DNA of 37,488 nucleotides from Omnitrophica WOR_2 bacterium RIFCSPHIGHO2_02_FULL_67_20 (GTDB taxonomy: Bacteria; Omnitrophota; Gorgyraeia; Aquiviventales; Aquiviventaceae), in assembly GCA_001805695.1 (NCBI GenBank), contig MHGT01000032.1:1-37488 (forward strand), read 5' to 3'. A program made the translations under genes and the position numbers. The notes under the pieces were generated by a model. It worked only from the letters and a program-made list of their open reading frames with translations, searched no databases and was not told where the DNA came from. Positions 1-32,561 of this stretch are shown here, in pieces (the first letter of the stretch is position 1; every line of letters begins with the position of its first letter).

Positions 1-1
1 C

Positions 2-1252: not shown

Positions 1253-1266
1253 GGTAAAAATAGCTG

Positions 1267-2872: not shown

Positions 2873-2875
2873 GGA

Positions 2876-2950: not shown

Positions 2951-2986
2951 ATTTACATGCAGTTCTTGAATCAGTAGGAGGATACC

Positions 2987-3997: not shown

Positions 3998-3999
3998 TA

Positions 4000-6452: not shown

Positions 6453-8584
6453 ACACCTTTGCTTTTTCCGGGCTCTTAACCAGTTTAGCGAGTCTCGGTA
6501 TTGGCGCGTGGGTCTATTTCAGCAACCGAACCAATTGGCTTAATCAGCTATGGAGCATGTTCTGCATCACGGTCGCTATCTGGGGACTTGGAGGGTTGCA
6601 AATTGGCCTAGCTTCAAATTCAGAAACGGCGTTGCTTTGGTGGCGCATAACCTATGTTGCCGTGATCCTCATACCCTCAATTTTTTATCACTTTGTCATC
6701 GTGTTTCTTGGAATTCGGCGTCCCATTACAGTCATCCTCGGATACTTACTAAGTTCCGGATTTTTAATCACAGATGCGACCCCCTTACTTATTGCGAACG
6801 TAGACAAAATTTTTAAGAATCTCTACTACGTCACTAAGCCAGTAGGGGTCGCCTATCCTGCGTTTGTCTTATTTTTTATCGGCATGGTTGTCCTAAGCCA
6901 TGTCGAGCTATGGCGGTACATGGGGAGGACAGCTGGTAATAAGCGTCGGCTCCAAGTTAGATGGTTTTTTTTAGCAGGTATTGTTGGATACATTGGGGGT
7001 ATTTCTTGTTTCCTTCCCGTCTTCGGGTTCAAGCTATATCCATATGGCAACTTCACAGTTCCTTTATTTCCTATTTTCCTGAGCTATGCCATCTTTCGTT
7101 ATCAACTTATGGACATCGAAGTTATTATCAAGCGGACCCTGGTGTTTGCGGGGCTTGTGGGATCCGTGGTGGCGGTGGTGGCGTCGATGGCGTTCGTCAC
7201 GCAGGATCTGCTGGCGCGATTCGTGGCGACGCCCCGGTGGCTCTCGAACGTGCTGGCGGCGATGGTCATCGCCGGGGTGTATGGCCCGCTGCGCAACTGG
7301 CTGGTGAACGTGACGGACCGGTTCCTCTTCCAGAAGAAGTACGACTACAAGGAGCTGCTCAAGAAGTTCACCGACGACGTGATGGTCATCGTGGACTTGA
7401 AGCAGCTGCTCCAGACGACGGTGACGACGCTCTCCGATACGGTGAAGCTGGAGAGCTGCAGCCTGCTGCTGCTGAACAAGGACACGCAGACGTATGAGCT
7501 GGCCGCCTCGCGCGGGACGAACGGCCGCCGGCTGGCGCTGGACGAGCAGGAGCCGTTCATCCGGTTCTTCCGCGAGACCCATGAGCCCATTGGCCTGGAT
7601 GGCTCGCTGGGGCAGGTGCGTTTCCCGGAGGCGGTGACGGGGCGCCTCAAGGAGCTCAACGCGCGGCTGTGCCTGCCGCTCCATCTCCATGAGGACCTCA
7701 TCGGCGTCCTGTGCCTGGGCAAGAAGAAGTCGGACGAGGAGTTCACGAAGGACGACTTCGACATCCTCCTCCCCCTGGCCCGCACGCTGGCGATCGCGGT
7801 GAGCAACGCCCAGCTCTTCGACGAGCTGGCCAAGACGCAGGCCGAGGCGGCGCAGAGGGAGAAGCTGGCCGTCATCGGCACGCTCTCCGCCGGCATCAAC
7901 CACGAGATCTGCAATCCCCTCGGCATCATCAAGGCGCAGTGCGAGGCGTTCCTGATGGACCTGGAAGACGGCATCCTCATCGGCAAGTCGCCGAGCGACC
8001 TGCTCAACCGGACCTCCTCCATCCTGCAGGTGGCGCTCAAGCAGATCGACCGCGCGACCGCCATCACCCAGAAGCTCTCCAACTTCGCCAAGCCCATCAA
8101 GGACCCCTCGATCCAGCCGGTGTCGGTCGAACAGGAGGTGGGGGAGGTGCTCCTGCTGGTCGGCCACGACCTCACGCTGGAAAAGATCGCCTTCGAGCAG
8201 GAGATCCCGCCGGATCTGCCGTCCATCACCGTGGACCGCCGCCAGTTCCAGGAGGTGCTCTTCAACCTCATCCGCAACGCGGCGCAGGCCATCACGCCGC
8301 CGGGGACGATCCGGGTGAGCGCGCGCGCGCACGAGGACGGCCGGGTCCGCATCGAGATTGAGGACAGCGGCAGCGGCATTCCCCCCGACAAGCTGGGCAA
8401 GATCTACGACCCCTTCTTCACGACGAAGGAGCCAGGCAAGGGCACCGGCCTTGGGCTCTTCATCGTCCGCCAAATTGTGGAACGCAATCGAGGGCGGATC
8501 GCGGTGGAGAGCGCGGTGGGGAAGGGGACGGTATTTTTTCTCGACTTTCCGGTGGCACGAGAGGTTCCCGCCAAGGCGGGGTGA
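6449..8584 (+). CDS. Multi-pass membrane sensor histidine kinase (7TM-type N-terminus + GAF + HisKA + HATPase_c)
   Basis: ATGA overlap with the upstream gene. About 9 hydrophobic helices, with a FRYQLMDIEV motif after helix 7. GAF-like KLESCSLLLLNKDTQTYELAASRG...LCLGKKKSDEEF. H-box LSAGINHEICNPLGI. NLIRNAAQAI, DSGSGIPPD, GTGLGLFIV. Confidence 0.9.
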   Translation: MNTFAFSGLLTSLASLGIGAWVYFSNRTNWLNQLWSMFCITVAIWGLGGLQIGLASNSETALLWWRITYVAVILIPSIFYHFVIVFLGIRRPITVILGYLLSSGFLITDATPLLIANVDKIFKNLYYVTKPVGVAYPAFVLFFIGMVVLSHVELWRYMGRTAGNKRRLQVRWFFLAGIVGYIGGISCFLPVFGFKLYPYGNFTVPLFPIFLSYAIFRYQLMDIEVIIKRTLVFAGLVGSVVAVVASMAFVTQDLLARFVATPRWLSNVLAAMVIAGVYGPLRNWLVNVTDRFLFQKKYDYKELLKKFTDDVMVIVDLKQLLQTTVTTLSDTVKLESCSLLLLNKDTQTYELAASRGTNGRRLALDEQEPFIRFFRETHEPIGLDGSLGQVRFPEAVTGRLKELNARLCLPLHLHEDLIGVLCLGKKKSDEEFTKDDFDILLPLARTLAIAVSNAQLFDELAKTQAEAAQREKLAVIGTLSAGINHEICNPLGIIKAQCEAFLMDLEDGILIGKSPSDLLNRTSSILQVALKQIDRATAITQKLSNFAKPIKDPSIQPVSVEQEVGEVLLLVGHDLTLEKIAFEQEIPPDLPSITVDRRQFQEVLFNLIRNAAQAITPPGTIRVSARAHEDGRVRIEIEDSGSGIPPDKLGKIYDPFFTTKEPGKGTGLGLFIVRQIVERNRGRIAVESAVGKGTVFFLDFPVAREVPAKAG

Positions 8585-8607
8585 GAGGAGCCCCATGAGT
8601 GTTTTGT

Positions 8608-8673
8608 CGGTTCGGAGTTCGGAGTTCGGAGTTCGGAGTATTTACCCCGAACCCTGATCCCCCAACCCCGAAC
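8608..8673. repeat. Heptamer-array palindromic element (GTTCGGA x4 / CCCGAAC-type arm)
   Basis: GTTCGGA occurs at 8610, 8617, 8624 and 8631. After a short spacer comes ccccgaaccctgatcccccaaccccgaac, an imperfect reverse complement. The element fills the HK-RR intergenic gap. Confidence 0.75.
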
Positions 8674-8680
8674 GCACTCC

Positions 8681-9067
8681 ATGGATGCAGCAAGGCCAGT
8701 CTTGGTGGCGATTGACGACGAAGTCGAGTTCACCAAGGCGATCGAGTCGTTCTTCGGCGCGCGCGGCTACGACGTGCGCGTGGCGCTCACCGGTCCCTCG
8801 GGTCTCGCCCTGGTGGATGCGCACAAACCGCGGGTCGTGCTCGTGGACCTGAAGCTGCCCGGCATGGACGGGGACGAAGTCCTCCAGCGCATCCGGCGCG
8901 CGCATCCCCAGACGCGCGTCATCATCATCACCGCCTACAACGACGGCGGTGTGACGCGCGAGCGGCTGCTGCGCGCGGGCGCCTTCGCCCACTTCGACAA
9001 GCCGCTTTCCTCGCTGCGGGACCTGGCCGCGGCGGTCCAGCGCGCACTCGCAGCACCGGAGCCATGA
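8681..9067 (+). CDS. Single-domain response regulator (REC only)
   Basis: VLVAIDDE...VVLVDLKLPGMDG...VIIITAY...HFDKP. 128 aa. Confidence 0.9.
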   Translation: MDAARPVLVAIDDEVEFTKAIESFFGARGYDVRVALTGPSGLALVDAHKPRVVLVDLKLPGMDGDEVLQRIRRAHPQTRVIIITAYNDGGVTRERLLRAGAFAHFDKPLSSLRDLAAAVQRALAAPEP

Positions 9068-10626
9068 GCGCCATGTCCGCCACCCTCCTCGAGCGGATCG
9101 TCTTCAAGCGGCTGGACCCTGCCAAGGTCGCCCTCTTCGTCGCGCTCTACGGCGTCGTCCTCGCCGTCCCGACGCTCCTCTTCACCCTCGGCTCGGCCTG
9201 GCTGCGCGGCCATTTCCCGAGTGTCTGGTGGATGATCCCGCTCGCCTTCTTCGGCCTGCTCGCCCTGCTGGCCCCGCTGGCCTACTTCGCCCTCCTGCGC
9301 CGGATGGAGTGGGCGCTCATCCGGGACCAGCGACGCTACCACCACACGCTGATCGGCGCCTCGAGCGGGATGATCCGCATCAAGGAGATCCAGCGGCTCT
9401 GCCGGCTCATCACCCACACCGTCAACCGCACCGTCGGGCTGACCAACACGGCGCTCTTCCTCTACGAGCCGAAGGAGCAGCGCTACGTCCTGCAGGCGGT
9501 GCGGTACCAGTCGCACCTGCCGCCGGAGCTCTCGGTGGACCAGGCCGACCCGCTGGTGCGGCGGCTCGAGGCCAAGAAGGATTTGCTGGTGGTGGACGAG
9601 CTGCGCGAGGCATCGGAGGCGGAGCTGCGGCGCGGGGAGGGCCGGGACCGGACCGCCGAGCAGGTGTACGGCTGGATGCGCCGCGTCGAGGCGCGGCTCA
9701 TCGTGCCGAGCTTCTCGAACGAGCGGCTGCTGGGCTTCCTCGCGCTGGGCGAGAAGCGCAGCCGCGAACCCTTCACGACGGACGATTTGGCCATCTTCTC
9801 CGGACTCGCCAACCAGGCGGCCCTGGCGCTTGAGAACGCCATGTTCTTCGAGGAGCTGCGCGCGAACGAGGTGTTGATCATCCAGTCGGAGAAGCTTGCC
9901 AGCCTCGGCCAGCTGGCCTCCGGCATGGCGCACGAGATCCACAACCCGCTGACCATCATCTCCGGCGAGTCGCAGCTCTACCTGGAGCGCTTCCGGGGCC
10001 AGGACGCGCAGGTGGACAAGCTGCTCCTGAGCATCATCGAGGAGTGCAAGCGGGCGGCCGACATCACCCGCCGCATCCTGCGCTTCGCCAAGCCCGCGCC
10101 CCCGGACGTCAACGCGGTGGACCTGAAGGCGACGGTGGAGGAGAGCCTGACGCTGGCCGGCTACCAGGTGCGGCTGGAGCGGGTGCAGTGCGTGGTCAAC
10201 ATGCCGGACCAGCTCCCCAAGGTGCGCAGCAACCAGAACCAGCTCCAGGAGGTCCTGCTGAACCTCATCCTCAACGCCTGCCAGGCGATGGGGGAGAAGG
10301 GCGGGCGGCTCGCGCTCTCGGCCCACCCGAACGGCTCTTCCGTCGTCCTCAAGGTGGAGGACAACGGCCCCGGCATTCCGGCCACCGCCCTCCGGAAGGT
10401 GTTCGACCCCTTCTACACGACGAAGGAGACGGGGACCGGGCTGGGCCTTTTCGTGACCCAGCGCATCATCCAGTCGCACGGCGGCACGATCGAGCTGGAG
10501 TCCGTCGAGGGCAAAGGGACTTGCTTCACGGTCCGTCTGCCGGTCTGGGAGGAGGGTGCGGCCACCGTGGCCCAGCCGGCGGCGGGCTCGGCCGAGGCGC
10601 CGGAGCCAGGAGGGGGCCCCGGATGA
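9064..10626 (+). CDS. Membrane sensor histidine kinase (2-3 TM + GAF + HisKA + HATPase_c)
   Basis: ATGA overlap with the RR gene. H-box LASGMAHEIHNPLTI. NLILNACQAM, DNGPGIP, GTGLGLFVT. Its juxtamembrane and GAF region is paralogous to the kinase at 2-1252. Confidence 0.9.
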   Translation: MSAMSATLLERIVFKRLDPAKVALFVALYGVVLAVPTLLFTLGSAWLRGHFPSVWWMIPLAFFGLLALLAPLAYFALLRRMEWALIRDQRRYHHTLIGASSGMIRIKEIQRLCRLITHTVNRTVGLTNTALFLYEPKEQRYVLQAVRYQSHLPPELSVDQADPLVRRLEAKKDLLVVDELREASEAELRRGEGRDRTAEQVYGWMRRVEARLIVPSFSNERLLGFLALGEKRSREPFTTDDLAIFSGLANQAALALENAMFFEELRANEVLIIQSEKLASLGQLASGMAHEIHNPLTIISGESQLYLERFRGQDAQVDKLLLSIIEECKRAADITRRILRFAKPAPPDVNAVDLKATVEESLTLAGYQVRLERVQCVVNMPDQLPKVRSNQNQLQEVLLNLILNACQAMGEKGGRLALSAHPNGSSVVLKVEDNGPGIPATALRKVFDPFYTTKETGTGLGLFVTQRIIQSHGGTIELESVEGKGTCFTVRLPVWEEGAATVAQPAAGSAEAPEPGGGPG

Positions 10627-10727
10627 TAATGAGGTATAATACACGCTGCAGCAAGCTGTTATGGCTTGCCAAGCAGGGGCTGGCTCAGGTATGGTTGTAG
10701 TGTGAGGCCCGGATATTCCCAGCACGC

Positions 10728-11822
10728 ATGGTAAAACTCCTCGTTGCTGACGACGAGCAGAAAATCTGCCGGCTGTTGGAGTCGTTTTTTGCCGAGCGGG
10801 GCTACCGCGTCCTGCTTGCGCATGACGGCCCCTCGGCCCTCTCCTGCATCCGTCAGGAGCGCCCCCACCTGGTGTTCCTCGACCTCCACATGCCCGGCCT
10901 CGACGGCCTGGACATCCTCAAGGAGACCCGGGCGTTCGACGAGACCATCAAGATCATCGTCATCACGGCGGTCGAAGATGCCGAGGTCATCGAGCAGGTC
11001 AAGCTGCTCGGGGCGGCCGACTACGTGATCAAGCCGTTTAGCCTGGAGTATCTGCAGGAGGAGGTGCTGGCGAAGGTCAGCACCTCGCTCTATGAGGACC
11101 TGCGCTCGGCCAACCAGGAGTTGAAGCGGTCGCTCGAGGAAATGCGCCAGGTGACGCGCGGCATCGTCGGGGCGTTTTCGCTCGTCATCTCGAAGATCGA
11201 CCCGCATTACACCCACGAGCACGTTTCCCGCAGCGTAGAGTACGCGAGCAAGATCATCGCCCGGCTGCGGCAGGAGGGGATGAGCTTCGACGGCATACCG
11301 GATGAGCTGCTCCTCGCGGGCATCCTCCTCCACGATGTCGGCAAGATCTTCACGCCCAAGGAGATCCTCTTCAAGCCCGGGCCGCTGTCCGACGAGGAGT
11401 GGCGGATCATGCGCCGCCATCCGGTCGACGGGGCCGAGATCCTGGAGCAGATCACCGGCCTGCAGGAGATGTCCAAGATCGTCCGCTACCACCAGGAGGC
11501 CTACAACGGCTCCGGCTATCCGGAGGGGCTTAAGGGCGAGGAGATCCCCATCGGGGCGCGCATCGCCACCGCGGTGGACGCCTTCGACGCGATGATCACC
11601 GACCGGCCCTACCGGAAGGGCATGCCCATCGAGAAGGCGATCGAGGAGCTCAGGCGCAACCGGGGCATCCAGTTCGACCCGCAGGTGGTGGACGTCATCG
11701 TCAGCCTCTCCGAGGAGGGCACCCTCAAGCCGGCTCACCTGCCCGACTCCAGCCACAGCATCGGCAGCAACGGGGCGGCGTCCGCCCGGCCGGACGGCAC
11801 GAACCACCACCCGCGCGCCTGA
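10728..11822 (+). CDS. Response regulator with HD-GYP output domain (RpfG-like c-di-GMP phosphodiesterase)
   Basis: REC: KLLVADDE...LVFLDLHMPGLDG...IVITA. HD-GYP: LLHDVGKI, RRHPVDG, YHQEAYNGSGYPEGL, DAFDAMITDRPYR. Confidence 0.9.
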   Translation: MVKLLVADDEQKICRLLESFFAERGYRVLLAHDGPSALSCIRQERPHLVFLDLHMPGLDGLDILKETRAFDETIKIIVITAVEDAEVIEQVKLLGAADYVIKPFSLEYLQEEVLAKVSTSLYEDLRSANQELKRSLEEMRQVTRGIVGAFSLVISKIDPHYTHEHVSRSVEYASKIIARLRQEGMSFDGIPDELLLAGILLHDVGKIFTPKEILFKPGPLSDEEWRIMRRHPVDGAEILEQITGLQEMSKIVRYHQEAYNGSGYPEGLKGEEIPIGARIATAVDAFDAMITDRPYRKGMPIEKAIEELRRNRGIQFDPQVVDVIVSLSEEGTLKPAHLPDSSHSIGSNGAASARPDGTNHHPRA

Positions 11823-11888
11823 GCCGTTCACCGCGGCGGCTTCGCCATACCGCTTTCTCTCCTGTTTCTCCTGGTCTGGTCGCCCCCA

Positions 11889-11925
11889 ACCCGCTTCCCC
11901 GGTAAACGTTACCCGGGGAGCGGGT
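11889..11925 (+). terminator. Strong GC-rich hairpin after the HD-GYP regulator gene (terminator candidate)
   Basis: acccgcttccccggtaaac / gttacccggggagcgggt form near-perfect arms. The downstream tail (agtgcgtttcc) is only weakly T-rich. Confidence 0.5.
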
Positions 11926-11939
11926 AGTGCGTTTCCTGC

Positions 11940-11968
11940 TTGTGCTGTCGGGGCCGGCCGCCTATAAT
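11940..11968 (+). promoter_or_regulatory. Sigma70-like promoter TTGTGC-17-TATAAT, ending 7 nt before the fabG ATG
   Basis: Read directly. The geometry places the transcription start at or next to the ATG at 11976. Confidence 0.5.
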
Positions 11969-11975
11969 TGCGCGC

Positions 11976-12722
11976 ATGGCATCATCGCTGACAGGCCAGG
12001 TCGCCATCGTGACCGGGGGGGCTAGGGGCATCGGCCGCGAGATCGCGCTCGTCCTGGCCCGGGACGGCGTGGACGTCGCCCTCTTCGACGTGAACCCCCA
12101 GCAGCTCGAGCAGACCGTCGCGGAACTGCGCGCGATGGGCCGCCGCGCCGAGGGGCTGACCGTGGACGTCACCGACGGAAAACAGGTCGACGAGGGCATG
12201 GCAAAAGTGCTTGACAAGCTAGGGAGAATCGATATACTCATCAACAACGCGGGCATCACCAAGGACGGGTTGCTCGTCCGCATGGATGATGCCCAGTGGG
12301 ATCGGGTGCTCACCGTCAACCTGACGGGCACCTTTCTGTGCACCCGCGCAGCGGCCAAGCACATGCTGAAGCAGCGGCGCGGGCGGATCGTCAGCATCGC
12401 GTCGATCGTTGGGATCATTGGAAATCCAGGGCAGGCGAACTACGCCGCATCGAAGGCGGGCATCATCGGGCTGACCAAGGCGGTCGCCAAGGAGCTCGCC
12501 AGCCGCGGGATCACCTGCAACGCCGTGGCACCCGGCTTCATCAAGACCGAGATGACCGAAGCGCTGCCTGAGCCGGCGAAGCAGCGGCTCATGGAGGCGA
12601 TCCCGATGGGCACGCTCGGCGAGCCGAGCGATGTGGCGCAGGCCGTGCGATTTCTCGTCAGCGACGCCGCGCGGTACGTCACCGGCCACGTGCTGGTGGT
12701 GGACGGCGGCCTCGCGATGTAA
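11976..12722 (+). CDS. fabG: 3-oxoacyl-ACP reductase
   Basis: VAIVTGGARGIG, NNAGIT, SIASIVG, YAASKAG (YxxxK). Positioned directly upstream of acpP-fabF. Confidence 0.92.
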   Translation: MASSLTGQVAIVTGGARGIGREIALVLARDGVDVALFDVNPQQLEQTVAELRAMGRRAEGLTVDVTDGKQVDEGMAKVLDKLGRIDILINNAGITKDGLLVRMDDAQWDRVLTVNLTGTFLCTRAAAKHMLKQRRGRIVSIASIVGIIGNPGQANYAASKAGIIGLTKAVAKELASRGITCNAVAPGFIKTEMTEALPEPAKQRLMEAIPMGTLGEPSDVAQAVRFLVSDAARYVTGHVLVVDGGLAM

Positions 12723-12746
12723 GGGCGGAAACCAGGGGAGGGATGG

Positions 12747-12995
12747 ATGGCGGAGGCTGTGGCGGATCGGGTTCGGGCGATCATTGCTGAGCAGCTTGGC
12801 GTCAAGCTGGAAGAAGTGACCGATGCGGCCTCGTTCATCGAAGACCTGGGTGCGGACTCGCTCGACACCGTCGAGCTGGTCATGGCGCTCGAGGAGGAGT
12901 TCGGGATCGAGATTCCCGATGAGGATGCCGAGAAGATGAGCTCGGTCGGCGACGCCATCAAATACATCGAGTCGAAGACTGCCGGCGCGAAATAG
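12747..12995 (+). CDS. acpP: Acyl carrier protein
   Basis: 82 aa. [21 protein letters not shown] carries the phosphopantetheine Ser motif. Confidence 0.95.
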
Positions 12996-13023
12996 CCTTC
13001 CGCACAAGTTGAGTGTGGCAACA

Positions 13024-13058
13024 GGACGTCCCGCTTTGGCGGGACGTTCGTGTTTGTG
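13024..13058 (+). terminator. Hairpin plus T-rich tail after acpP (terminator/attenuator candidate)
   Basis: acgtcccgc-tttg-gcgggacgt gives a 9-bp stem, followed by tcgtgtttgtg. Confidence 0.55.
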
Positions 13059-13108
13059 AAGATGATAAAGCAGATTGAAGAGCTGATTACACAGATAGGA
13101 CGTCATAG

Positions 13109-14347
13109 ATGAGGCGGGTTGTGGTGACAGGATTGGGTGCCGTGACGCCGGTGGGGAACGACGTCCCCGCCATGTGGGCGGCGCTCCTGGCCGGCAAAAG
13201 CGGTGTCGGCCCGATTCAGAGCTTCGACGCCTCCGCCTTCGAGTCCCGCATCGCCGCTGAGGTCAAGGGCTTCGACCCCGCGTCGTACATCAGCCCGAAG
13301 GAGATCAGGCGCACCGAGCGGTTCACGCAGCTGGCCATCGCGGCGGCAACGCAGGCGGTCCGGCAATCCGGCGTCAGCATCGAGCGCGAGGACCCGTTCC
13401 GCTGCGGCGTCATCATCGGCTCCGGGATGGGGAGCATGCACCTCATCGAGGAGCAGCACAGCGTCTACCTGGCCAAGGGGCCGAAGAAGCTCACCCCCTT
13501 CATGATCCCGATGCTCATCTGCAACATGGCGCCGGGCCACGTCGCCATGAACCTCGGTTTCAAGGGCCCCAACTTCTGCACGACGACCGCCTGCGCCTCC
13601 GGCGCCCACGGAGTGGGCGAGGCGTTCCGCATCATCCAGCGGGGGGCGGCCGACGTGATGCTCGGCGGCGGCACGGAGAGCTGTGTGAGCCCGATGGCGG
13701 TGGGCGGCTTCTGCGCGCTCATGGCGCTCTCCCGCCGCAACGGCGAGCCCGCCACAGCCAGCCGTCCCTTCGATCGGGAGCGCGACGGCTTCGTCATCGG
13801 CGAGGGCGCCGGCGTCCTGGTCCTGGAAGAGCTGGAGCACGCGAAGAAGCGCGGGGCCGCGATCCTCGCCGAGATGGCGGGCTACGGGCTCACCGCGGAC
13901 GCCTACCATATGACCGCACCCGACCCGGAGGGAACCGGGGCCGCCAAGGCGATGGCGCTGGCGCTGGAAGATGCCCGGATGCGGCCCGAGGACGTCACCT
14001 ACCTCAACGCCCACGGCACCTCGACCGAGCTCAACGACAAGATTGAAACGCTGGCGATCAAGAAGACCTTCGGCCCGGCCGCCAAGACGGTGGCGGTTTC
14101 TTCCACGAAATCCATGACCGGCCACCTGATCGGCGCCGCGGGCGGTGTGGAGGCGGTCATCTCGGTCCTCGCCATCACCGACGGCGTCATGCCCCCCACC
14201 ATCAACTACGAGCACCCGGACCCCGAGTGCGACCTCGACTACGTCCCCAATCACGCCCGGCGCGCCGCGGTCAAGGCGGTGCTCTCGAACTCGCTGGGGT
14301 TTGGGGGACATAACGCGACGGTGATTTTTAGGAAGTTTCACGGCTGA
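13109..14347 (+). CDS. fabF: Beta-ketoacyl-ACP synthase II
   Basis: RRVVVTGLGAVTPVG, TTTACASGAHGV, NAHGTSTELND, KSMTGHLIGAAG. Canonical fabG-acpP-fabF order. Confidence 0.95.
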   Translation: MRRVVVTGLGAVTPVGNDVPAMWAALLAGKSGVGPIQSFDASAFESRIAAEVKGFDPASYISPKEIRRTERFTQLAIAAATQAVRQSGVSIEREDPFRCGVIIGSGMGSMHLIEEQHSVYLAKGPKKLTPFMIPMLICNMAPGHVAMNLGFKGPNFCTTTACASGAHGVGEAFRIIQRGAADVMLGGGTESCVSPMAVGGFCALMALSRRNGEPATASRPFDRERDGFVIGEGAGVLVLEELEHAKKRGAAILAEMAGYGLTADAYHMTAPDPEGTGAAKAMALALEDARMRPEDVTYLNAHGTSTELNDKIETLAIKKTFGPAAKTVAVSSTKSMTGHLIGAAGGVEAVISVLAITDGVMPPTINYEHPDPECDLDYVPNHARRAAVKAVLSNSLGFGGHNATVIFRKFHG

Positions 14348-14357
14348 TCGGCGGCCA

Positions 14358-14435
14358 TCCCACCACCTATCGGTTCGCCAACGGCGAGCCGCAACGCGGC
14401 TGGTCGCTATTCAGCGACTCCGATAGGTGGTGGGA
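14358..14435. repeat. 78-bp palindromic element with perfect 16-bp terminal inverted repeats (TCCCACCACCTATCGG / CCGATAGGTGGTGGGA)
   Basis: Arms at 14358-14373 and 14420-14435. The outer 11 nt are shared with the element at 22017-22126. Confidence 0.8.
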
Positions 14436-14436
14436 C

Positions 14437-23896: not shown

Positions 23897-24491
23897 AGAA
23901 AAGCTGCTGAAGCTCATCCGGGGCAAACCCGCCCGGTCCGCCACCGAGGCCGCGGCGTTCCCGCGCCCCGGCCAGCTCATGACCGCCTCCAGCCAGGCGG
24001 CGAAGGCCCGGGTCTTCCGCTCACCCGCGCGCGCGCCGGGATGGCCGACGATCGCCATGTGCGTGTTGGGGGCGTTCCTGGTCGTCGAAGTCATCGTGCT
24101 TATCGTCCAGGTGCTCCGCCCGCTGCCACCGGTGCTGCTGCCGGTCGAAGCGGCGGCTTCGCTGCCGGTAGCACTCCCGTCCCCTCACGAGCTGCCGTCG
24201 CTCAGCGCCAGCGTGCCCAGGACCGTCTTCGCGCCGAGCGCCGCGGCACCGGCGACAGGCGCCGCAGCCGCCCCGCTCAGCACATCGACCAAGCTCCTCG
24301 CCGCCCGCCTGACGCTCATGGGGATCGTCGCAGGCGACCCGCCGCAGGCGATCATCGAGGACTCCGAGACGAAGAAGACGTTTTTCGTGACCGCCGGCCA
24401 GATGGTGATCGAGGACGCCGTTGTCGAGCAGGTGCTGGACAGCCGCGTCATCCTCACGGTGGCGGGCGAAAAAATCGAGCTCTCGTTGTAA
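23862..24491 (+). CDS. GspC-like / PilP-like bitopic secretin-interacting protein
   Basis: One TM (IAMCVLGAFLVVEVIVLIVQVL), a Pro/Ala-rich linker, and a C-terminal HR-type beta domain (LTLMGIVAGDPPQAIIEDSETKKTFFVTAGQMV...VILTVAGEKIELSL). Confidence 0.6.
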   Translation: MSPDGFAKPPPEEKLLKLIRGKPARSATEAAAFPRPGQLMTASSQAAKARVFRSPARAPGWPTIAMCVLGAFLVVEVIVLIVQVLRPLPPVLLPVEAAASLPVALPSPHELPSLSASVPRTVFAPSAAAPATGAAAAPLSTSTKLLAARLTLMGIVAGDPPQAIIEDSETKKTFFVTAGQMVIEDAVVEQVLDSRVILTVAGEKIELSL

Positions 24492-24493
24492 GC

Positions 24494-26398
24494 ATGCCTC
24501 CAAAGCCGCCGCTCGGTTCAGGGTTCAGGGTTCAGGGTTCAGGGCAGACCGGTTCGCCCCGAACCCCGAACCCCCAACCCCCAACCCTTGCGAGTCTCGG
24601 CCTCGTGCTGCTCTTGCTCGGTGGAGCGGCAGGGCGGCTGATGGCGCAGCCGCCCGCGCCCCCGGTTCAAGAGGGACCGATCCGCGCCGGAGGGCGCATC
24701 TCGCTGGATCTTAAAGGCGTGGACATCCTCGATGTGCTCAAGCTGCTCTCCCAGAAGAGCGGGCTGAACTTCATCGCCGGGCGCAACGTCACGGGCCGCG
24801 TGACGATCTTCGTCGACGACGTGGACGTGTGGGACGCCTTCGAGCTCATCATCGGCGCCAACGATTTCGCGTATGAGCGGCGCGGCGACATCGTGACGGT
24901 GATGATGGCGCGCGACTACGAGCTCCTCTACGGGGAAAAGTTCCAGGTGCGCACCCAGACGCTCATCCAGCCGCTGAAGTACGCGAAGGGCTCGCCCGCC
25001 GCCGCCGTCCTCAACCAGATCAAGTCCTCCATCGGCCGCGTGGTGGTCGATGAGGCGACCGCCACGCTTATCCTCACCGATGTGCCGGCGAAGCTCGTCG
25101 AGATGCAGGGCGTCCTCAAGGAGCTCGACCGGCCGACCAAGACCCGCGTCTACAACCTCAACTACGCCGACGCGGAGAAGCTCAAAGAGAAAGTCCAGGA
25201 GCTGCTCTCGCCCGCCGGCACCTTCACGTTCGACACCCGGACCAACAAAGCGGTGGTCTCGGATCTCGAAGAGGTGCTCACGAAGGTGGACCGGATCGTG
25301 CGGGCGTTCGACGCCCCGGACGGCCAGGTGCTGATCGAAGCCAAGATCGTCAAGGTCGACCTCACCGACCAGATGGACCTCGGCATTGACTGGCAGCAGG
25401 TGTTCGCCGGCATCGACATGCAGACGCGCGGCAACTTCCGCGTGCTGAGCGACATCGTCGGCGGCGCCGCGACCGGCGGGGCGCTCAAGCTGCTGACGGC
25501 GCCGAAGGGAAACACGCAGGTCATCATCGAGGCGCTGAAAAAAATCACGAGCACCGACACGCTCTCCAGCCCCCGCATCATGGTCTCGAACAACCAGGAG
25601 GCGAAAATCCTTGTCGGGACCAAGGAGGCGGTCGTCACCGTGACGACGACCGTGCCGGCGACCGGCTCCACCGTCTCGGCGCCGGAGATCCAGTACGTGG
25701 ATGTCGGCACCAAGCTCTTCGTCACGCCGAGCATCAAGCGGGACGGCCACATCCAGCTCAAGGTCCGCCCCGAGGTGAGCACCTCCAAGGTCGAGACGTT
25801 CCAGACCAACCGCATCCCTATTGTGACTTCGACGGAGGCCGAGACAAACGTGCTCGTGAAGAGCGGGGTCACGCTCATCATCGGCGGCCTCATCGAGCAC
25901 AAGGACGAGCGGACGGAAAACCGCGTGCCCGTGTTGGGTGACATGCCCATCATCGGGGCGGCGTTCCGGGGCTCGACCGACTCGAACCGAAAGACCGAGC
26001 TGGTCGTCTTCCTGACCCCCCAGATCATCATGCCCGACGGCTCCGCCTATGCCGACAGCCCCCAGCCGTCGCCGGTCATCGAAGAACTGGAATCGAACGG
26101 CGGCCGCGCCTCGTCGCTGCCGCCCGCGTACCGTCAGGCGGTCCGCCGGCATCTGCAGGAGCGGTTGACCGACCGGCTGCGGCAGGCGTCGCTGCCGTCC
26201 GGCTCAGTGATCGTATCGTTCACGCTGGGGCGGGAAGGGCGGCTCATCGGCGCTCAGCAGATTATCAGCTCCGGGGGCGATGCCTTCATCCGGGCGGCCG
26301 CGGAGGCGCTCCAGCAGGCCGAGCCGTTCCCGCCGTTCCCGCAGGATTCGCCGGCGCATGAGGTCACGTTCCGGCTCGCCGTCGACTACACCCCGTAA
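24494..26398 (+). CDS. gspD: Secretin (GspD/PilQ family) with a C-terminal TonB/TolA-like domain
   Basis: N0-like: ISLDLKGVDILDVLKLLSQKSGLNFI. Secretin_N repeats: VYNLNYADAEKLKEKV. Secretin core: LSSPRIMVSNNQEAKILVG...RVPVLGDMPIIGAAFRG...ELVVFLTPQII. A C-terminal extension follows (see findings). Confidence 0.9.
   Translation: MPPKPPLGSGFRVQGSGQTGSPRTPNPQPPTLASLGLVLLLLGGAAGRLMAQPPAPPVQEGPIRAGGRISLDLKGVDILDVLKLLSQKSGLNFIAGRNVTGRVTIFVDDVDVWDAFELIIGANDFAYERRGDIVTVMMARDYELLYGEKFQVRTQTLIQPLKYAKGSPAAAVLNQIKSSIGRVVVDEATATLILTDVPAKLVEMQGVLKELDRPTKTRVYNLNYADAEKLKEKVQELLSPAGTFTFDTRTNKAVVSDLEEVLTKVDRIVRAFDAPDGQVLIEAKIVKVDLTDQMDLGIDWQQVFAGIDMQTRGNFRVLSDIVGGAATGGALKLLTAPKGNTQVIIEALKKITSTDTLSSPRIMVSNNQEAKILVGTKEAVVTVTTTVPATGSTVSAPEIQYVDVGTKLFVTPSIKRDGHIQLKVRPEVSTSKVETFQTNRIPIVTSTEAETNVLVKSGVTLIIGGLIEHKDERTENRVPVLGDMPIIGAAFRGSTDSNRKTELVVFLTPQIIMPDGSAYADSPQPSPVIEELESNGGRASSLPPAYRQAVRRHLQERLTDRLRQASLPSGSVIVSFTLGREGRLIGAQQIISSGGDAFIRAAAEALQQAEPFPPFPQDSPAHEVTFRLAVDYTP
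24515..24587. repeat. Heptamer-array palindromic element (GGTTCAG x4 / CCCCGAAC-CCCCAAC arm)
   Basis: Four perfect GGTTCAG units at 24515-24542. The right arm is ccccgaaccccgaacccccaacccccaaccc at 24557-24587. The element lies inside the secretin 5' coding region. Confidence 0.8.
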
Positions 26399-27284: not shown

Positions 27285-27296
27285 GCAGTTGCGTGG

Positions 27297-30200
27297 ATGC
27301 GCGTTAAAAAGTTAGAAATTTTCGGGTTCAAGTCGTTCGCCCACAAGACGGTCATCCACTTCGAGCCCGGGGTGACCGCCATCGTCGGGCCGAACGGGTC
27401 CGGCAAGTGCGTGCATGGGGACTCCCGCGTGGTGCTGGCGGACGGGCGGGTTGTTCCAATCAAGGAGCTTGTGGAAGAAGCGCTCCGGGATGCCGGCCGC
27501 ATCGAGGATTGGGATGATGGGCAGGCGACGCACGACAATCCTTATGGCCTGCGCGTCTTGTCCCTCAACCCGGCTTCCCTCAAGGTTGAGCCGCGTCCGA
27601 TCACCGCGTTCATCAAGCGCACCGCTCCCGCCATACTCTACCGCATCGTGACCCGGACGGGCCGTGAGCTCGTCGCGACCGGCTACCACCCGCTCTTTAC
27701 ACTGGACGGCGGCGCGCTGAAGAGCCTGCCGGCCGACCAACTGCGGCTCGGGATGCGGATCGCCATTCCCCGCACGCTGCCCGTGTCGGGCGCGAGCGAT
27801 GCGCTGGACCGTGCGGCGATCTTCAGTCGGTTTAGTCGTGGCGATTCCGTCTACGTCCCGCACTCGCCAGCGCTGGAACAGTGGGTGAATCACATCAGCG
27901 AACGAGGTGGCGGGTTGGCCGCCGTCGCGCGACGCGCCGGAATCGAGCGGGGCCATGTGAGCATGGTGCGACAGGGACAAGCTGTCAATGCGGCGACCGT
28001 CAGCCGGCTCCAGACATGGTCGCAGGACGGGGGCGATGCGTCGGTCGGCACGGTCCTGCAAGCGAGCCGGGGCGCCAAGGCCGCCATGACCATCCCTTCG
28101 CGGATGACTCCAGCGCTGGCCAGGTTCCTGGGCTACTGCATTTCCGAAGGACAGAACACCTCGGCGAACCAGGTGTGGTTTGTGAATAGCGACCCAGCGC
28201 TAGTGGAGGATTTTTGCCGTTGCGCCGCCGAGACCTTCGGGGTGCGGCCGCGAGTGCTGTCATATAAGCCCAACGCGAAGGACGTACTGGTGTTCTCCCA
28301 CGCGCTCTGCCTGTACCTCGAGAAGGCTTTTGGATTCGCCGTGGGTCAACTGTCCGCTGAGAAGCAAGCGCCGGACGTCGTGCTGGGCGCGTCGGAGGAA
28401 TGCGTGCGCGCGTTCCTGTCGGCCCTGTTCGAGGGGGATGGGCACGTAGCGATGAAGATGCGCGCCGGCAGGACGATCGCGTACGTCGAGTATGCGACGG
28501 CGAGCCACCGGCTGGCCGATGACGTCTGTCTGCTCCTGCTCCGATTCGGCATTGTGGGTCGGATCGCCACCAAGCGAAAAGCGGCCACCAATACCCGGCA
28601 TCGTGTGGTTCGGACGTATTACAGCGTGATGATCTACGGGGTGGAACAGCTCACACGACTGGCGGAGGTCCTTGAGTTTCGAGGAGAGAAGCGGCGCGCG
28701 TTGGAGTGTCTCCGGTTGCTCAACCAATCGCCCAACCCGAACGACGATGTGGTGCCGGGCGTGACCCCGTTGGTGAACGCCCTGGTGCGTCAGGCCGGAC
28801 TCTCGGTCAAGCGGCTCCGGAAGGAGCATCCGACCTTAGCCGCCTACTACGAAGGACGGTGTGAAGCGACTCGCCCGGGTATTAGACGAGTACTGGACGC
28901 CGTTCAGCGGTTGGGTCGCGGCGGCCCCGAGGTCAGCACACTCTGCGAGCGGCTCCGGCTTCTAGCGGAGTCTGACGTGTATTGGGACGCCATTGCCAGC
29001 ATCGAACCGGTTCGCGGAACAGAGTGGGTGTATGACCTGACGGTGGACGGCTACCACAACTTCATTGCCAACGGCATGGTGGTGCATAACAGCAACATCG
29101 TCGACTCGATCCGCTGGGTGCTCGGCGAGCACAACCCGCGCGACGTCCGCGCCCCCCGCCTCGAAGACGTCATCTTCAACGGCACCGACAAGAAGGCCCC
29201 GCTCTCCATGGCGGAGGTGCACCTCACCATCGCCAACGAGCAGGGGCTCCTGCCGATCGCCTTCACCGAAGTGACGATCACCCGCCGCGTCTACCGCTCC
29301 GGCGAGAGCGAGTGCTTCATCAACCAGAGCCCCTGCCGGCTGAAGGACATCCAGGAGCTCTTCCTCGGCACGGGCCTCGGCGGCGGCACGTACGCCATCA
29401 TCGAGCAGGGCCACATCGACCTGATCCTCTCCTCGAAGCCGGAGGAGCGCCGCATCGTCTTCGAAGAGGCCAGCGGTGTGGCCAAGTATCTCGCGAAAAA
29501 GCGTGAGACGATGCGCCGGCTCGACGAGGTCGAAGAGCACCTCGTGCGGATCGCCGACATCATCGCAGAGGTCCGCCGGCAGGTCGCCGCACTGGAGCGC
29601 GCGGCGAACAAGGCCCGCCAGTACAAAACGCAGTGGGAGCAGCTGAAACAGCTGGAGCTGCGGCTCGTCGTGGATGAGCTGGGCTCTGGCCAGACGCGCG
29701 ACCAGGAGCTCGAAACACGGGTGCGCGCGCTCCAGGCCAAGCGGGACGAGCTCGAAGCACAGAAGCAAACGCACGTCACGTCGCTCGAAGCGGCCAACGC
29801 CGCGGTCTCGGCCATCGCCGGCAGGCTCCAGGAGCTGCGCACGCAGGCGGTGACCTCCGCCAGCGAAGTCCAGCAGCACGACGGCCAGCTCGCCCTCAAG
29901 ACGCGCTGGATCGAAGAGCTCGCGCAGCAGGTCCAGCAGGCCGAGGCCGAGGCGGTCCAGCTGCGCGAGCGCACGACCCAGCTCGACGAGCAGCTCGCCC
30001 GTGTGGGCGGCGCCGAGGCCGAGGTGGCGGCACAGCTCTCCGCCGTCGAGGAACAGGCCCATCAGGGCGGCGGCGAGCTGGCCGCGCTCGAGGTCGTGCT
30101 GCAGTCGGCGCTCGAAACGCTCGAAACGGCCAAGGCCCAGCTCTTCGACGCGGCCTCCGAGGCCTCGCACCAGCGCAACCGGCTCGCCGGAGCGGCCTCG

Positions 30201-32561
30201 CGGCTCCAGGGCGTGGAGGCGCACGTCAGCCGCCTCGAGGCCCAGCGCACCCAGCGCACCGCGCACGCCGACGAGCTGCGCCGCCGCAGCCAGGCCGCCT
30301 TCGACGAGCACGCCGCACTGCAGCGCGCCTGCGACGAACTCAGGCGCCGCCTGACGACGGCGCAGGAGCTGCACGACGCCGCGTCGGCCAGGCGCCATGA
30401 GCTGACCGGACGGCTCCACGAGCTGCGCGACCGGCTCGCGGGTGAGCGCGCCCGCGCGGCGCTGCTCGAAGACCTCTGGCACCGCTATGAAGGGTTTCCC
30501 GACACGGTGAAGACGCTCATGAGCCGGCAGGTGGACGGGCTCATCGGCCCGCTTGTGGATCTCGTGCAGCCCGCTCCCGGCTACGAAGAGGTCGTCGAGG
30601 CGGCCCTCGGGCCGCTCGGCGAGGCGCTGGTCGTGCGCGACCGCCGGGCGCTGTCCCGTTGCCGGGAGCTGCTGAATGAGCAGGGGCTGGAGGGCTGCCG
30701 CTTCCTCGTCCTCTCGGACTGCCCGCTCGCGCTGGCGATGGAGCCGGCCGGTTCGCAGGAGGGGGTCGCGGGCGCGGTGAAACAGTACGTGCGCGCCGAG
30801 CCCGAGTACCAGCCGCTGGTGGACTGGCTGCTCAACGACTCCTGGGTCATCGACGACATCCAGCGGCTGCTCGGCCAGGCCCGGCCGCCGCAGGGACGGC
30901 TGGTGAGCCAGCGCGGCGAGCGGTGGGACCGCCGCTCGTGGCGCTTCGGCCGGACCACCCGCGCCTCCGCCTCCAGCCGGTTTGGGCGCAAGCAGCGCTG
31001 GGAAGCGGGCCAGGCGGTACTTCAGGCCTTGGAAGAAGAGTTCCGTCGCGTCGAAGCCGACTCCCGCGAGGCGGAGCAGGCTTGGCAGGCGCGCCTGAGC
31101 GAGCAGGAGGCGGCGAAGGGACAGGCGGCCCACACAGCACCCGCTCTGCACAAGCTGGACGCGCAGGCGATGCAGCTTGCGCGCGAGCTGGAGCGGCTTG
31201 ACGAGGAGCAGCGCGCCTGCGAGCTGGAGGCGGGGGACCTGACGGCCCAGCGCGAGGAGCTGTGCCGCGAATCGGCGCAGACCGAGCGGGCAGTGCAGGA
31301 GGCGCAGGAGCGCCAGCGAATACTCGAGCGCGCGCTCGGCGATGCGCAGGCCGCGCGCGAATCCTCGGAACAGCGCCGCCAGCAGCTGCTCATCGCCCGC
31401 GCACAGGTCGAGTCCTCTCGGCAGTCGCTGACGGAGCGCCGCGACGCGCTGCGCGCTCGCCGCGCCGAGCTTGACGCGGACAAGGCCGGGCTGTTGCAAC
31501 AGCTCGAATCCAGGGTCGCCCGGCGGCAGGACGTCCTGCGGCGCTCCGAAGAGCTCAGCGGGCAGCTCGAGGAGCATCGCCAGGCGGTCCAGCGCCTCAC
31601 CGAGGAGCGGAGCCGGCTCGACGCCGAGGCGGAGGCCGTCAGCCAGACGCTCAACACCGAAGAGGCGACGCGGGACCAGCTCCTGCCGCATCTCTTGGCC
31701 GCGGAGCAGGAGCTCTCGACGCTGATGCGCCAGCTCCAGGAACAGGCCCAGCAGCTCTCCGAGCGGACGTACCGCCGCACCCACCTGGTCGAGCGGCTGC
31801 GGGAGCTCTATCAGATCGACCAGACCGCCATTGACGCGGAGCGCCAGGCCAACCCGCCGCCGCTCACCGACGAGCAGCGCGCCCAGGCGTCCGAGCAGGT
31901 CCAGAAGCTGCGGGCCAAGCTGGAGGGGATCGGTCCGGTGAGCCTGGGATCGGTGGAAGAGTACGACGAGCTCAAGCGCCGCCTCGACTTCCTCCAGACC
32001 CAGCAGCAGGACCTCGTCCAGGCGCGGGACGATCTCAAAACCTCCATCACGCAGATCAACCGCACCGCCCGCACCCAGTTCCGCGAGACGTTCGAGCGGA
32101 TCAAGCAGGAGTTCCAGCACTACTACACCCGGCTTTTCGACGGCGGTGAAGCGAACCTCATCCTCCTCGACGAGGAGGATGTGCTGGAGTCCGGCATCGA
32201 CATCGTCGCCCGCCCGCCGGGGAAGCGTCTCCAGAGCATCAGCCTCCTCTCCGGCGGCGAGCGGGCGATCACAGCCGTGGCACTCCTCTTCGCGCTCTTC
32301 AAGGTGCGGCCCTCCCCGTTCTGCATCCTGGATGAGATCGATGCGCCGCTCGATGAGGCCAACGTGGACCGCTTCACCCGCGTGCTCGAGGAGTTCCTCA
32401 CGCTCTCCCAGTTCATCCTCGTCACGCACAACAAGAAGACGATCACCAAAGCCGACTCGCTCTACGGGGTGACGATGGAAGAACCCGGCATCTCCAAGAT
32501 CCTCTCCGCCAAGCTCACCCCCAGCCGCCCGCCCAGCTCGACCGTCCCCGTCGCGGCCTGA
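27297..32561 (+). CDS. smc: Chromosome partition protein SMC, interrupted in frame by an intein
   Basis: MRVKKLEIFGFKSF...GPNGSGK|intein|SNIVDSIRWVLGE. Hinge GLIGPLVDLV, signature LSGGERAITAVALLFAL, Walker B FCILDEIDAPLD. 1754 codons in total, 1193 without the intein. Confidence 0.95.
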   Translation: MRVKKLEIFGFKSFAHKTVIHFEPGVTAIVGPNGSGKCVHGDSRVVLADGRVVPIKELVEEALRDAGRIEDWDDGQATHDNPYGLRVLSLNPASLKVEPRPITAFIKRTAPAILYRIVTRTGRELVATGYHPLFTLDGGALKSLPADQLRLGMRIAIPRTLPVSGASDALDRAAIFSRFSRGDSVYVPHSPALEQWVNHISERGGGLAAVARRAGIERGHVSMVRQGQAVNAATVSRLQTWSQDGGDASVGTVLQASRGAKAAMTIPSRMTPALARFLGYCISEGQNTSANQVWFVNSDPALVEDFCRCAAETFGVRPRVLSYKPNAKDVLVFSHALCLYLEKAFGFAVGQLSAEKQAPDVVLGASEECVRAFLSALFEGDGHVAMKMRAGRTIAYVEYATASHRLADDVCLLLLRFGIVGRIATKRKAATNTRHRVVRTYYSVMIYGVEQLTRLAEVLEFRGEKRRALECLRLLNQSPNPNDDVVPGVTPLVNALVRQAGLSVKRLRKEHPTLAAYYEGRCEATRPGIRRVLDAVQRLGRGGPEVSTLCERLRLLAESDVYWDAIASIEPVRGTEWVYDLTVDGYHNFIANGMVVHNSNIVDSIRWVLGEHNPRDVRAPRLEDVIFNGTDKKAPLSMAEVHLTIANEQGLLPIAFTEVTITRRVYRSGESECFINQSPCRLKDIQELFLGTGLGGGTYAIIEQGHIDLILSSKPEERRIVFEEASGVAKYLAKKRETMRRLDEVEEHLVRIADIIAEVRRQVAALERAANKARQYKTQWEQLKQLELRLVVDELGSGQTRDQELETRVRALQAKRDELEAQKQTHVTSLEAANAAVSAIAGRLQELRTQAVTSASEVQQHDGQLALKTRWIEELAQQVQQAEAEAVQLRERTTQLDEQLARVGGAEAEVAAQLSAVEEQAHQGGGELAALEVVLQSALETLETAKAQLFDAASEASHQRNRLAGAASRLQGVEAHVSRLEAQRTQRTAHADELRRRSQAAFDEHAALQRACDELRRRLTTAQELHDAASARRHELTGRLHELRDRLAGERARAALLEDLWHRYEGFPDTVKTLMSRQVDGLIGPLVDLVQPAPGYEEVVEAALGPLGEALVVRDRRALSRCRELLNEQGLEGCRFLVLSDCPLALAMEPAGSQEGVAGAVKQYVRAEPEYQPLVDWLLNDSWVIDDIQRLLGQARPPQGRLVSQRGERWDRRSWRFGRTTRASASSRFGRKQRWEAGQAVLQALEEEFRRVEADSREAEQAWQARLSEQEAAKGQAAHTAPALHKLDAQAMQLARELERLDEEQRACELEAGDLTAQREELCRESAQTERAVQEAQERQRILERALGDAQAARESSEQRRQQLLIARAQVESSRQSLTERRDALRARRAELDADKAGLLQQLESRVARRQDVLRRSEELSGQLEEHRQAVQRLTEERSRLDAEAEAVSQTLNTEEATRDQLLPHLLAAEQELSTLMRQLQEQAQQLSERTYRRTHLVERLRELYQIDQTAIDAERQANPPPLTDEQRAQASEQVQKLRAKLEGIGPVSLGSVEEYDELKRRLDFLQTQQQDLVQARDDLKTSITQINRTARTQFRETFERIKQEFQHYYTRLFDGGEANLILLDEEDVLESGIDIVARPPGKRLQSISLLSGGERAITAVALLFALFKVRPSPFCILDEIDAPLDEANVDRFTRVLEEFLTLSQFILVTHNKKTITKADSLYGVTMEEPGISKILSAKLTPSRPPSSTVPVAA
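27408..29090 (+). mobile_element. Class 1 intein with a LAGLIDADG homing-endonuclease domain, inserted in the SMC Walker A motif
   Basis: Cys1 (CVHGDSRVVLADGRVVPIKEL), block B TGYHPLF, LAGLIDADG motifs LARFLGYCISEGQ and FLSALFEGDGHV, blocks F/G VYDLTVDGYHNFIANGMVVHN, then +1 Ser. 561 codons. Confidence 0.9.

Follow-up and report, generated by a model that had tools for sequence, protein, structure and literature searches.

A full-length LAGLIDADG intein in the Walker A motif of a bacterial SMC protein from an uncultivated Omnitrophota bacterium

What interrupts the ATP-binding loop of the SMC protein of an uncultivated groundwater bacterium, and is the interrupting element still mobile? The question is raised by a stretch of 37,488 nucleotides, hereafter the window, corresponding to positions 1-37,488 (forward strand) of contig MHGT01000032.1 from Omnitrophica WOR_2 bacterium RIFCSPHIGHO2_02_FULL_67_20 (assembly GCA_001805695.1; GTDB lineage Bacteria; Omnitrophota; Gorgyraeia; Aquiviventales; Aquiviventaceae). 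A search with the spliced SMC product also points to an uncultivated groundwater Candidatus Omnitrophota (Omnitrophica) bacterium as the host. In the smc gene of this organism, reported here as its single bacterial-type copy, the Walker A motif is split by an in-frame insert, for which a first-pass annotation, made from the sequence alone, proposed a full-length LAGLIDADG intein. This proposal is supported by profile matches, by matches to solved inteins, by a structure model, and by the existence of a 92%-identical empty allele. Very probably, the insert is an intact and mobile class-1 intein carrying a LAGLIDADG homing endonuclease; the positions of its parts are collected in Table 1.

The junctions are clear at the codon level. 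At the N-terminal junction, AAG for Lys37 (27405-27407), the last residue of GPNGSGK, is followed by TGC (27408-27410), that is, by Cys in place of the expected Ser or Thr. The C-terminal junction, 561 codons on, consists of CAT AAC for the His-Asn of NGMVVHN (29085-29090) and then AGC AAC ATC GTC GAC TCG, encoding SNIVDS, from 29091. The insertion point is thus the bond from Lys (-1) to Ser (+1) of the Walker A motif, and subtraction of residues 38-598 from the precursor restores GPNGSGK-SN and leaves an SMC of 1193 amino acids, a normal length that is shared with the intein-free homologue P0030 described below. The reading frame is open across all 1754 codons, and the class-1 residue set is complete: C1, T91/H94, D543/H550, H560-N561, and S+1. 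Cys1, the TGYH block, the terminal HN, the +1 Ser, the two LAGLIDADG motifs, the restored GKSN motif, and the length of the host protein without the insert had been picked out in the first-pass annotation, and each is found as stated there. Furthermore, the interrupted protein belongs to the bacterial SMC family. The whole open reading frame (ORF) scores 915 bits against NCBIfam SMC_prok_B (TIGR02168), above the curated cutoff of 567; Pfam SMC_N and SMC_hinge both match it; and the N- and C-terminal halves of the ABC-type head, the coiled coil, and the hinge are all present.

The 561-amino-acid insert matches both splicing and endonuclease profiles: Pfam Intein_splicing (PF14890; E=1.3e-24, 87 bits, cutoff 35.8) and LAGLIDADG_3 (PF14528; E=1e-17, 64.7 bits, cutoff 22.5), and NCBIfam intein_Nterm (TIGR01445; E=1.5e-17, 64 bits, cutoff 24.5) and intein_Cterm (TIGR01443; E=2.7e-9, 37 bits, cutoff 15.6). 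Its top sequence matches among solved structures are all inteins, with Pho CDC21-1 (E=1.6e-23) followed by PI-PkoII, DnaB mini-inteins, and VMA inteins. An AlphaFold2 model of the intein, built on an alignment of 19 homologous inteins, has a mean predicted local distance difference test score (pLDDT) of 91.9, with no segment below 50, and a predicted TM-score (pTM) of 0.91. When the PDB is searched with this model by Foldseek (TM-scores normalised to the target, TMt), the TliVMA intein with its endonuclease (E=8e-27, TMt 0.83), PI-PkoII (E=7e-25, TMt 0.72), PI-PfuI (E=1e-18, TMt 0.65), and PI-SceI (E about 1e-9) are recovered, and the alignments with TliVMA and PI-PkoII extend over 571-630 columns. 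Mini-inteins superpose on the splicing halves of the model with a root-mean-square deviation (rmsd) of 1.8-3 Å, and the free-standing LAGLIDADG enzymes I-DmoI, I-OnuI, and I-Tsp061I superpose on its core. In this core, helix 235-246 terminates in E247 and helix 330-344 in D344, and a strand pair follows each, so that the two helices and the catalytic acidic residues of a two-motif LAGLIDADG enzyme are found in an alpha-beta-beta-alpha-beta-beta-alpha arrangement. When scanned with Pfam, the two helical accessory domains matched no family significantly; a role in DNA binding is presumed for them solely by analogy with those of PI-PfuI, PI-PkoII, and PI-SceI.

Does the same site also exist without the insert? 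The first-pass annotation pointed to relatives as the place where intein-free smc alleles may be found, and indeed the two best matches of the spliced product are of this kind. The best, P0030, has 1193 amino acids, is 92% identical, and aligns without gaps; the second, P0031, is also 1193 amino acids long and is 80% identical. The contigs of P0030 are groundwater metagenome loci (L001-L003), which match the window in gene order for about 19 kb, a stretch covering type II secretion genes, the secretin, a short-chain dehydrogenase (SDR), smc, ribBA, ribH, nusB, and more. Once the intein is removed, the smc DNA can be aligned with that of L001 codon for codon, at 91.5% nucleotide identity (91.8% over the C-extein), and the empty site in L001 reads ...GTCGGCCCGAACGGCAGCGGGAAG/AGCAACATTGTCGATGCCATC..., with GGGAAG/AGCAAC around the junction (slash). 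This intein-less allele in a very close relative presumably represents the homing site.

How widespread, then, is the occupied allele? GTDB species representatives were scanned for intein relatives using two peptide patterns, one of which holds LAGLIDADG motif 2, and at least 249 loci encoding a relative of the window intein were found. Junction architecture was read in the best 80 of the 249 loci, and conservation was analysed in 79 aligned inteins. The site, GPNG[C/S/A/T]GK followed by C...HN and then by SN, is identical in 77 of the 80, while the remaining three are cut by contig ends; the inteins are open, 546-569 amino acids long, and without stop codons, and the +1 residue is S, followed by N, in all 77 loci. 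The hosts belong to Omnitrophota, Acidobacteriota (many of them Pyrinomonadaceae), Rokubacteria/Methylomirabilota, Chloroflexota, and Armatimonadota, together with bins labelled Saccharibacteria or Planctomycetes. C1, T91, H94, E247, D344, D543, H560, and N561 are invariant in 79/79 inteins and also in the 19-homologue alignment, H550 is kept in 78/79, and 51 positions are invariant overall in the 79 inteins. The best 80 loci and the top 120 SMC relatives include no mini-intein and no endonuclease with visible degradation.

Nine SMCs (P0035, P0039, P0041, P0061, P0072, P0080, P0107, P0117, and P0119) are the nearest intein-bearing relatives of the window protein. Their exteins are 56-73% identical to those of the window, and each carries at the same site an intein of 560-568 amino acids that is 58-66% identical to the window intein. 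A protein search with the intein alone recovered 19 more distant SMC-embedded copies (39-48% identity) from Blastocatellia, other Omnitrophota, Rokubacteria, and one Micrarchaeota archaeon, and after these DnaB, RecA, and dCTP-deaminase inteins at about 26-33% identity. Since this word-indexed search missed the nine closest inteins, which surfaced only with the spliced SMC as a query, absence from it is weak evidence. The window copy itself falls into a subgroup restricted to one Omnitrophota lineage when inteins are clustered, and look-up of the exact precursor protein found no record. The SMC P-loop intein allele is common in uncultivated bacteria and is also found in many metagenome proteins; its database copies bear generic annotations only. 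A peculiar member is found at the 3′ end of the Rokubacteria contig JACPCW010000062.1 (locus L066, protein P0004), in which an SMC N-extein and the intein are present but where the contig ends, the last block runs into a GyrB-like ...HNFVAGEGGMALKNTDGSHIRTLLLTFFF...; it may be an assembly chimera of two intein-containing genes or else a real recombinant.

Because L066/P0004 looks chimeric at its end, one may ask whether the window insert is likewise an assembly artefact joining unrelated sequences, or else a dead, non-splicing remnant in an smc pseudogene. Both ideas were rejected as extremely improbable: the 1754 codons are open and none of the catalytic splicing residues has been lost; those 77 of 80 independent loci, which come from different assemblies and phyla, show the insert in frame with the same architecture; the exteins are constrained, as seen in the 92% identity to the intein-free orthologue and in the intact signature and Walker B motifs; and the flanking gene order matches that of the intein-free locus on both sides.

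Following established intein chemistry, the expected life of the element can be outlined. In the newly translated precursor of 1754 amino acids, the intein separates Lys37 from Ser and so breaks the ATP-binding loop (P-loop), for which reason the unspliced SMC head should be unable to bind ATP. Cys1, aided by Thr91 and His94 of block B, would convert the Lys37-Cys1 peptide bond into a thioester by an N-S acyl shift, and the +1 Ser would attack this thioester to form a branched intermediate by transesterification. Asn561, aided by His560 and by Asp543 and His550 of block F, would then cyclise and free the intein, and an O-N shift would produce a normal Lys-Ser bond, by which GPNGSGKSN and the 1193-amino-acid SMC would be restored. 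The freed 561-amino-acid protein is predicted to be a monomeric two-motif LAGLIDADG endonuclease, with E247 and D344 as its acidic residues and two helical accessory domains. Its substrate would be intein-less smc genes, cleaved at the insertion site, and repair from an intein-bearing copy would spread the element by gene conversion, that is, by homing. Since the site is an essential and invariant motif, imprecise loss would be lethal and only precise loss tolerated, which may explain why the intein persists; transfer would be eased by the conservation of the target sequence across phyla.

Mobility of this kind is suggested by several observations. The intein is carried by only about 9 of the roughly 90 closest SMCs, so that it is patchy even among close relatives. 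In one groundwater sample (JGI 3300027835), an intein-free (L002) and an intein-bearing (L004) allele occur in related populations. Among the eight full-length intein-bearing proteins compared, pairwise intein identity and extein identity are uncorrelated (r=0.09); in P0107, for example, identity to the other proteins is 58-65% for the intein but only 52-56% for the extein. When the 79 inteins were clustered by average linkage and cut at 55% identity, one cluster mixed Acidobacteriota, Chloroflexota, and Armatimonadota. Furthermore, the same SMC allele occurs in an archaeon, the Micrarchaeota case mentioned above.

Several points weigh against an actively mobile intein. The clusters of the 79 inteins mostly match host taxonomy, so much of the inheritance may be vertical or within lineages. 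The closest known intein is only 66% identical, and no recent donor is among the sampled sequences. The intein may have been present since ancient times and then have been lost precisely in the lineages of P0030 and P0031. Splicing and DNA cleavage themselves are inferred from conserved residues only. Taken together, such points could describe a passenger that still splices but whose endonuclease is inactive or kept for another role, and which is fixed, vertically inherited, and no longer mobile. The agreement of intein clusters with host taxonomy, the 66% ceiling, by which no recent transfer is documented, and a third-position composition that is low throughout the family and hence no mark of recent arrival would all suit it. 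This passenger is nevertheless unlikely, in view of the patchy distribution, with the 92%- and 80%-identical relatives being intein-free; of the uncorrelated divergence of inteins and exteins, with the P0107 intein closer to the others than its extein; of the cluster covering several phyla; and of the lack of mini-inteins or degraded versions in the best 80 loci. In addition, the 79 sequences, from several phyla, agree without exception at the two LAGLIDADG acidic residues and at about 50 further positions. For E342, G343, and D344, this agreement partly follows from the search itself, since one pattern held motif 2; motif 1 and the splicing blocks were absent from the patterns.

A possible footprint of homing has been found in the N-extein of the window. 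This 111-nucleotide segment is the most divergent stretch of that length in the gene when compared with L001: its identity is 0.82 against a mean of 0.917, which places it in the lowest 0.35% of windows of the gene, and it contains 20 differences where 7-9.5 are expected (Poisson p 4e-5 to 2e-3). For one Ser, the window uses TCC and L001 uses AGC, so that not a single base of the codon is shared. The segment is no closer to L001 than to unrelated lineages, and the next 600 nucleotides are 93.8% identical to L001. The divergent N-extein is suggestive of a trace of co-conversion, either during homing or during loss of the intein in the sister lineage; comparison with an outgroup, the 73% relative L085, did not decide which lineage exchanged DNA. 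This signal is weak because it comes from the first 111 nucleotides of a gene, a region in which atypical codon usage is frequent.

Base composition was also considered. The first-pass annotation had judged the intein slightly less GC-rich than the exteins, and this is borne out (64.3% against 69.8%), with a wider gap in GC content at third codon positions (GC3; 77.4% against 91.2%). GC3 is 0.92-0.94 in the SMC head regions and 0.88-0.96 in most neighbouring genes of the window. The lower GC3 of the intein is a further sign of mobility, but it was rejected as proof of recent arrival because the same offset is present in 11 of 12 related loci, whose host exteins range in GC3 from 0.50 to 0.97. 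It sets the element apart in composition, possibly as a general property of its kind, but does not mark it as a newcomer. Across these related loci (12 checked among L004-L084), the GC3 of the intein tracks the host composition yet stays 3-26 points lower. As for a vehicle, a scan of viral contigs found no intein relatives, and there is thus no evidence for a phage vector.

A different proposal, compatible with a mobile intein and not exclusive of it, is that the intein is kept as a conditional switch or "panic button", by which the SMC ATPase and chromosome compaction would be held back, e.g., under oxidative stress or at certain temperatures. The precursor necessarily lacks a Walker A loop, and such roles have been proposed for ATPase P-loop inteins in the text of Novikova et al. 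(2016; PMC4760082). Moreover, Cys is present at position -3 (GPNGCGK/C) in 62 of the 77 intein-bearing alleles, forming a C-x-x-C across the N-terminal splice junction, and in only 23 of 108 intein-free Omnitrophota SMCs, although these are raw counts in which kinship is ignored. The window allele has Ser at -3 and hence no junction CxxC, and the 92% and 80% relatives do without the intein. A conditional switch in the window gene is for these reasons rather improbable. The same low degree of belief applies to a family-wide version, in which the SMC P-loop inteins would be retained post-translational switches that withhold SMC ATPase activity, compaction, and segregation until splicing conditions are given. 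In most alleles, a disulfide between Cys(-3) and Cys1 is a possible redox trap, while the window allele would need another trigger. The intact endonuclease in 79/79 copies from at least five phyla, and the intein-free and intein-bearing populations in a single groundwater sample, fit some long-term retention, which is not proof of functional retention.

The smc locus of the window has the gene order secretin, SDR, smc, ribBA, ribH. The spacer between the dehydrogenase gene and smc is 12 nucleotides in the window (27285-27296) and about 10 nucleotides in the intein-bearing L008 (about 2990-3000); it is about 100-140 nucleotides in the intein-free L001 (9894-10000) and P0031 loci and in the intein-bearing L004 (5860-6000). 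Scans of the window detected no tRNA genes and no Rfam matches, and the Rfam scan detected no flavin mononucleotide (FMN) riboswitch ahead of ribBA. Farther upstream, positions 1-18000 form a dense signalling region with three GAF-domain histidine kinases, two response regulators, one of them with an HD domain, and a FabF-like ketoacyl synthase; the type II secretion operon comes next, with the T2SS-E ATPase at 14530-16218 and the secretin at 24041-26398. A low-GC island is located at 3950-7150 (GC 0.43-0.50 against 0.64-0.70 in the flanks, GC3 0.44-0.49 against about 0.9). It contains an ORF with PilZ and S-adenosylmethionine (SAM) methyltransferase domains (3994-5289) and an NAD_binding_4 reductase ORF (5286-6452); of a histidine-kinase ORF (6449-8584), it takes in only the N-terminal seven-transmembrane (7TM) portion, the GAF/HATPase portion being host-like in GC. 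This island looks like a horizontally acquired cassette that made a chimeric kinase.

Table 1. Positions in the window of the smc precursor gene, its exteins, and the parts of the intein.
Feature	Position	Strand	Description	Basis
smc precursor ORF	27297..32561	+	1754 aa + stop; N-extein, intein, C-extein	ORF list, TIGR02168, Pfam
N-extein	27297..27407	+	37 aa; ends in Walker A GPNGSGK (27387-27407); -1 residue is Walker A Lys37	
Intein, class 1 (Cys1 ... His-Asn)	27408..29090	+	561 aa, precursor residues 38-598	Pfam, NCBIfam, AlphaFold2/Foldseek
Cys1 (TGC)	27408..27410	+	predicted nucleophile of first step (N-S acyl shift)	invariant in 79/79 homologues
N-terminal HINT half	27408..27782	+	intein residues 1-125	beta-strand pattern in model; Pho/Pab CDC21-1 similarity
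Block B, T91-G-Y-H94 (TGYH)	27678-27689	+	within N-terminal HINT half	T91, H94 invariant
Helical accessory domain 1	27783..28097	+	intein residues 126-230	helices 135-205 in model
LAGLIDADG homing-endonuclease core	28098..28682	+	intein residues 231-425	Pfam LAGLIDADG_3 (1e-17); model
LAGLIDADG motif 1, LGYCISEG	28128-28151	+	acidic residue E247	
LAGLIDADG motif 2, LFEGDGH	28425-28445	+	acidic residue D344	
Helical accessory domain 2	28683..28967	+	intein residues 426-520, between endonuclease core and C-terminal HINT half	helices in model
C-terminal HINT half	28968..29090	+	intein residues 521-561	TIGR01443 intein_Cterm
Block F, WVYDLTVDGYHNF	29025-29063	+	D543, H550	
Block G, NGMVVHN	29070-29090	+	H560, N561	
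+1 Ser (AGC)	29091..29093	+	predicted transesterification nucleophile; Walker A Ser (GKS) once spliced	
C-extein	29091..32561	+	rest of SMC head, coiled coil, hinge, signature, Walker B, stop codon	
SMC hinge	about 30534-30863	+	in C-extein	
SMC signature motif LSGGE	32247-32261	+	in C-extein	
SMC Walker B FCILDE	32319-32336	+	in C-extein	

The understanding of inteins is not changed by the window intein, and what is new is modest: a bacterial SMC P-loop allele is documented that is widespread in uncultivated phyla, whose endonuclease is intact wherever examined, and which has a 92%-identical intein-free counterpart. A bacterial chromosome-organisation ATPase is added to the P-loop NTPases invaded at the Walker A Lys-Ser/Thr bond, such as DnaB, MCM, RFC, and others listed in the text of Novikova et al. 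(2016; PMC4760082). The allele is widespread in soil and groundwater phyla that are uncultivated and lie outside earlier intein surveys, and intein-bearing SMC genes are easily mis-annotated, since gene callers and annotators name them "hypothetical" or "LAGLIDADG endonuclease, partial". For a study of the homing cycle in nature, material is offered by closely related intein-free and intein-bearing smc alleles in one aquifer sample, and protein engineering may find a new source in this large intact intein.

How does the window intein compare with those already known? Inteins in SMC are not unprecedented: the main text of Novikova et al. (2016; PMC4760082) notes that archaeal SMC ATPases contain inteins, with neither an insertion site nor a bacterial case given there, and in the same text SMC is outside the top 15 intein hosts, bacterial or archaeal. 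The ATPases for which that text describes P-loop insertion at the Lys-Ser/Thr bond include MCM and RFC-S (site a in both) and DnaB (site b). In literature searches, no paper on a bacterial SMC P-loop allele was found, the archaeal mention in PMC4760082 being the only report of an intein in SMC. As for the question raised in the first-pass annotation, whether such an allele is already catalogued, the case for novelty is mostly lost: sequence collections contain at least 249 GTDB relatives, and SMC is a known intein host in archaea, although the searches found no description of the bacterial allele.

The closest counterparts are the public SMC P-loop inteins (P0001-P0019 and P0035-P0119; L004-L084), which share with the window intein the host, the insertion point GPNGxGK/C...HN/SN, a length of 546-569 amino acids, the domain order, and the invariant residues; at 39-66% identity to them, the window copy is a distinct sequence. 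Among solved structures, the best sequence match is to the Pyrococcus CDC21-1 (MCM) inteins (PDB 6rpq and 6rpp; E=1.6e-23). The Pho and Pab CDC21-1 inteins are 33-36% identical over the HINT halves, superpose with an rmsd of 1.8-3.0 Å, use class-1 chemistry, and likewise reside in a replication/chromosome ATPase, at a site that we take to be MCM site a in the P-loop. They differ in having archaeal MCM hosts, and the matching chains, of about 168 amino acids, lack endonuclease and accessory domains. The overall architecture, in which the HINT domain is split and a two-motif LAGLIDADG core is joined by extra domains, is shared instead with TliVMA (7qss), PI-PkoII (2cw7), and PI-PfuI (1dq3), to which the structural similarity is high (Foldseek E 8e-27 to 1e-18, TMt 0.65-0.83) at only 16-19% sequence identity. 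Their hosts are V-ATPase, DNA polymerase, and ribonucleotide reductase, with other insertion sites, and a further difference is that the two helical accessory domains of the window intein match no Pfam family. Outside SMC, the nearest relatives in sequence are bacterial DnaB inteins, at about 30% identity (E 1e-24 to 1e-18), and the NCBIfam model for intein-containing DnaB, PRK07773, matches the window intein with 155 bits in the region of the endonuclease and the C-terminal HINT half. DnaB site b is likewise in the P-loop according to the text of Novikova et al. (2016; PMC4760082), but the host protein is another one and the identity is far below that among the SMC alleles. The window intein is a real and typical one, very probably mobile, standard and full-length in kind and with a textbook mechanism.

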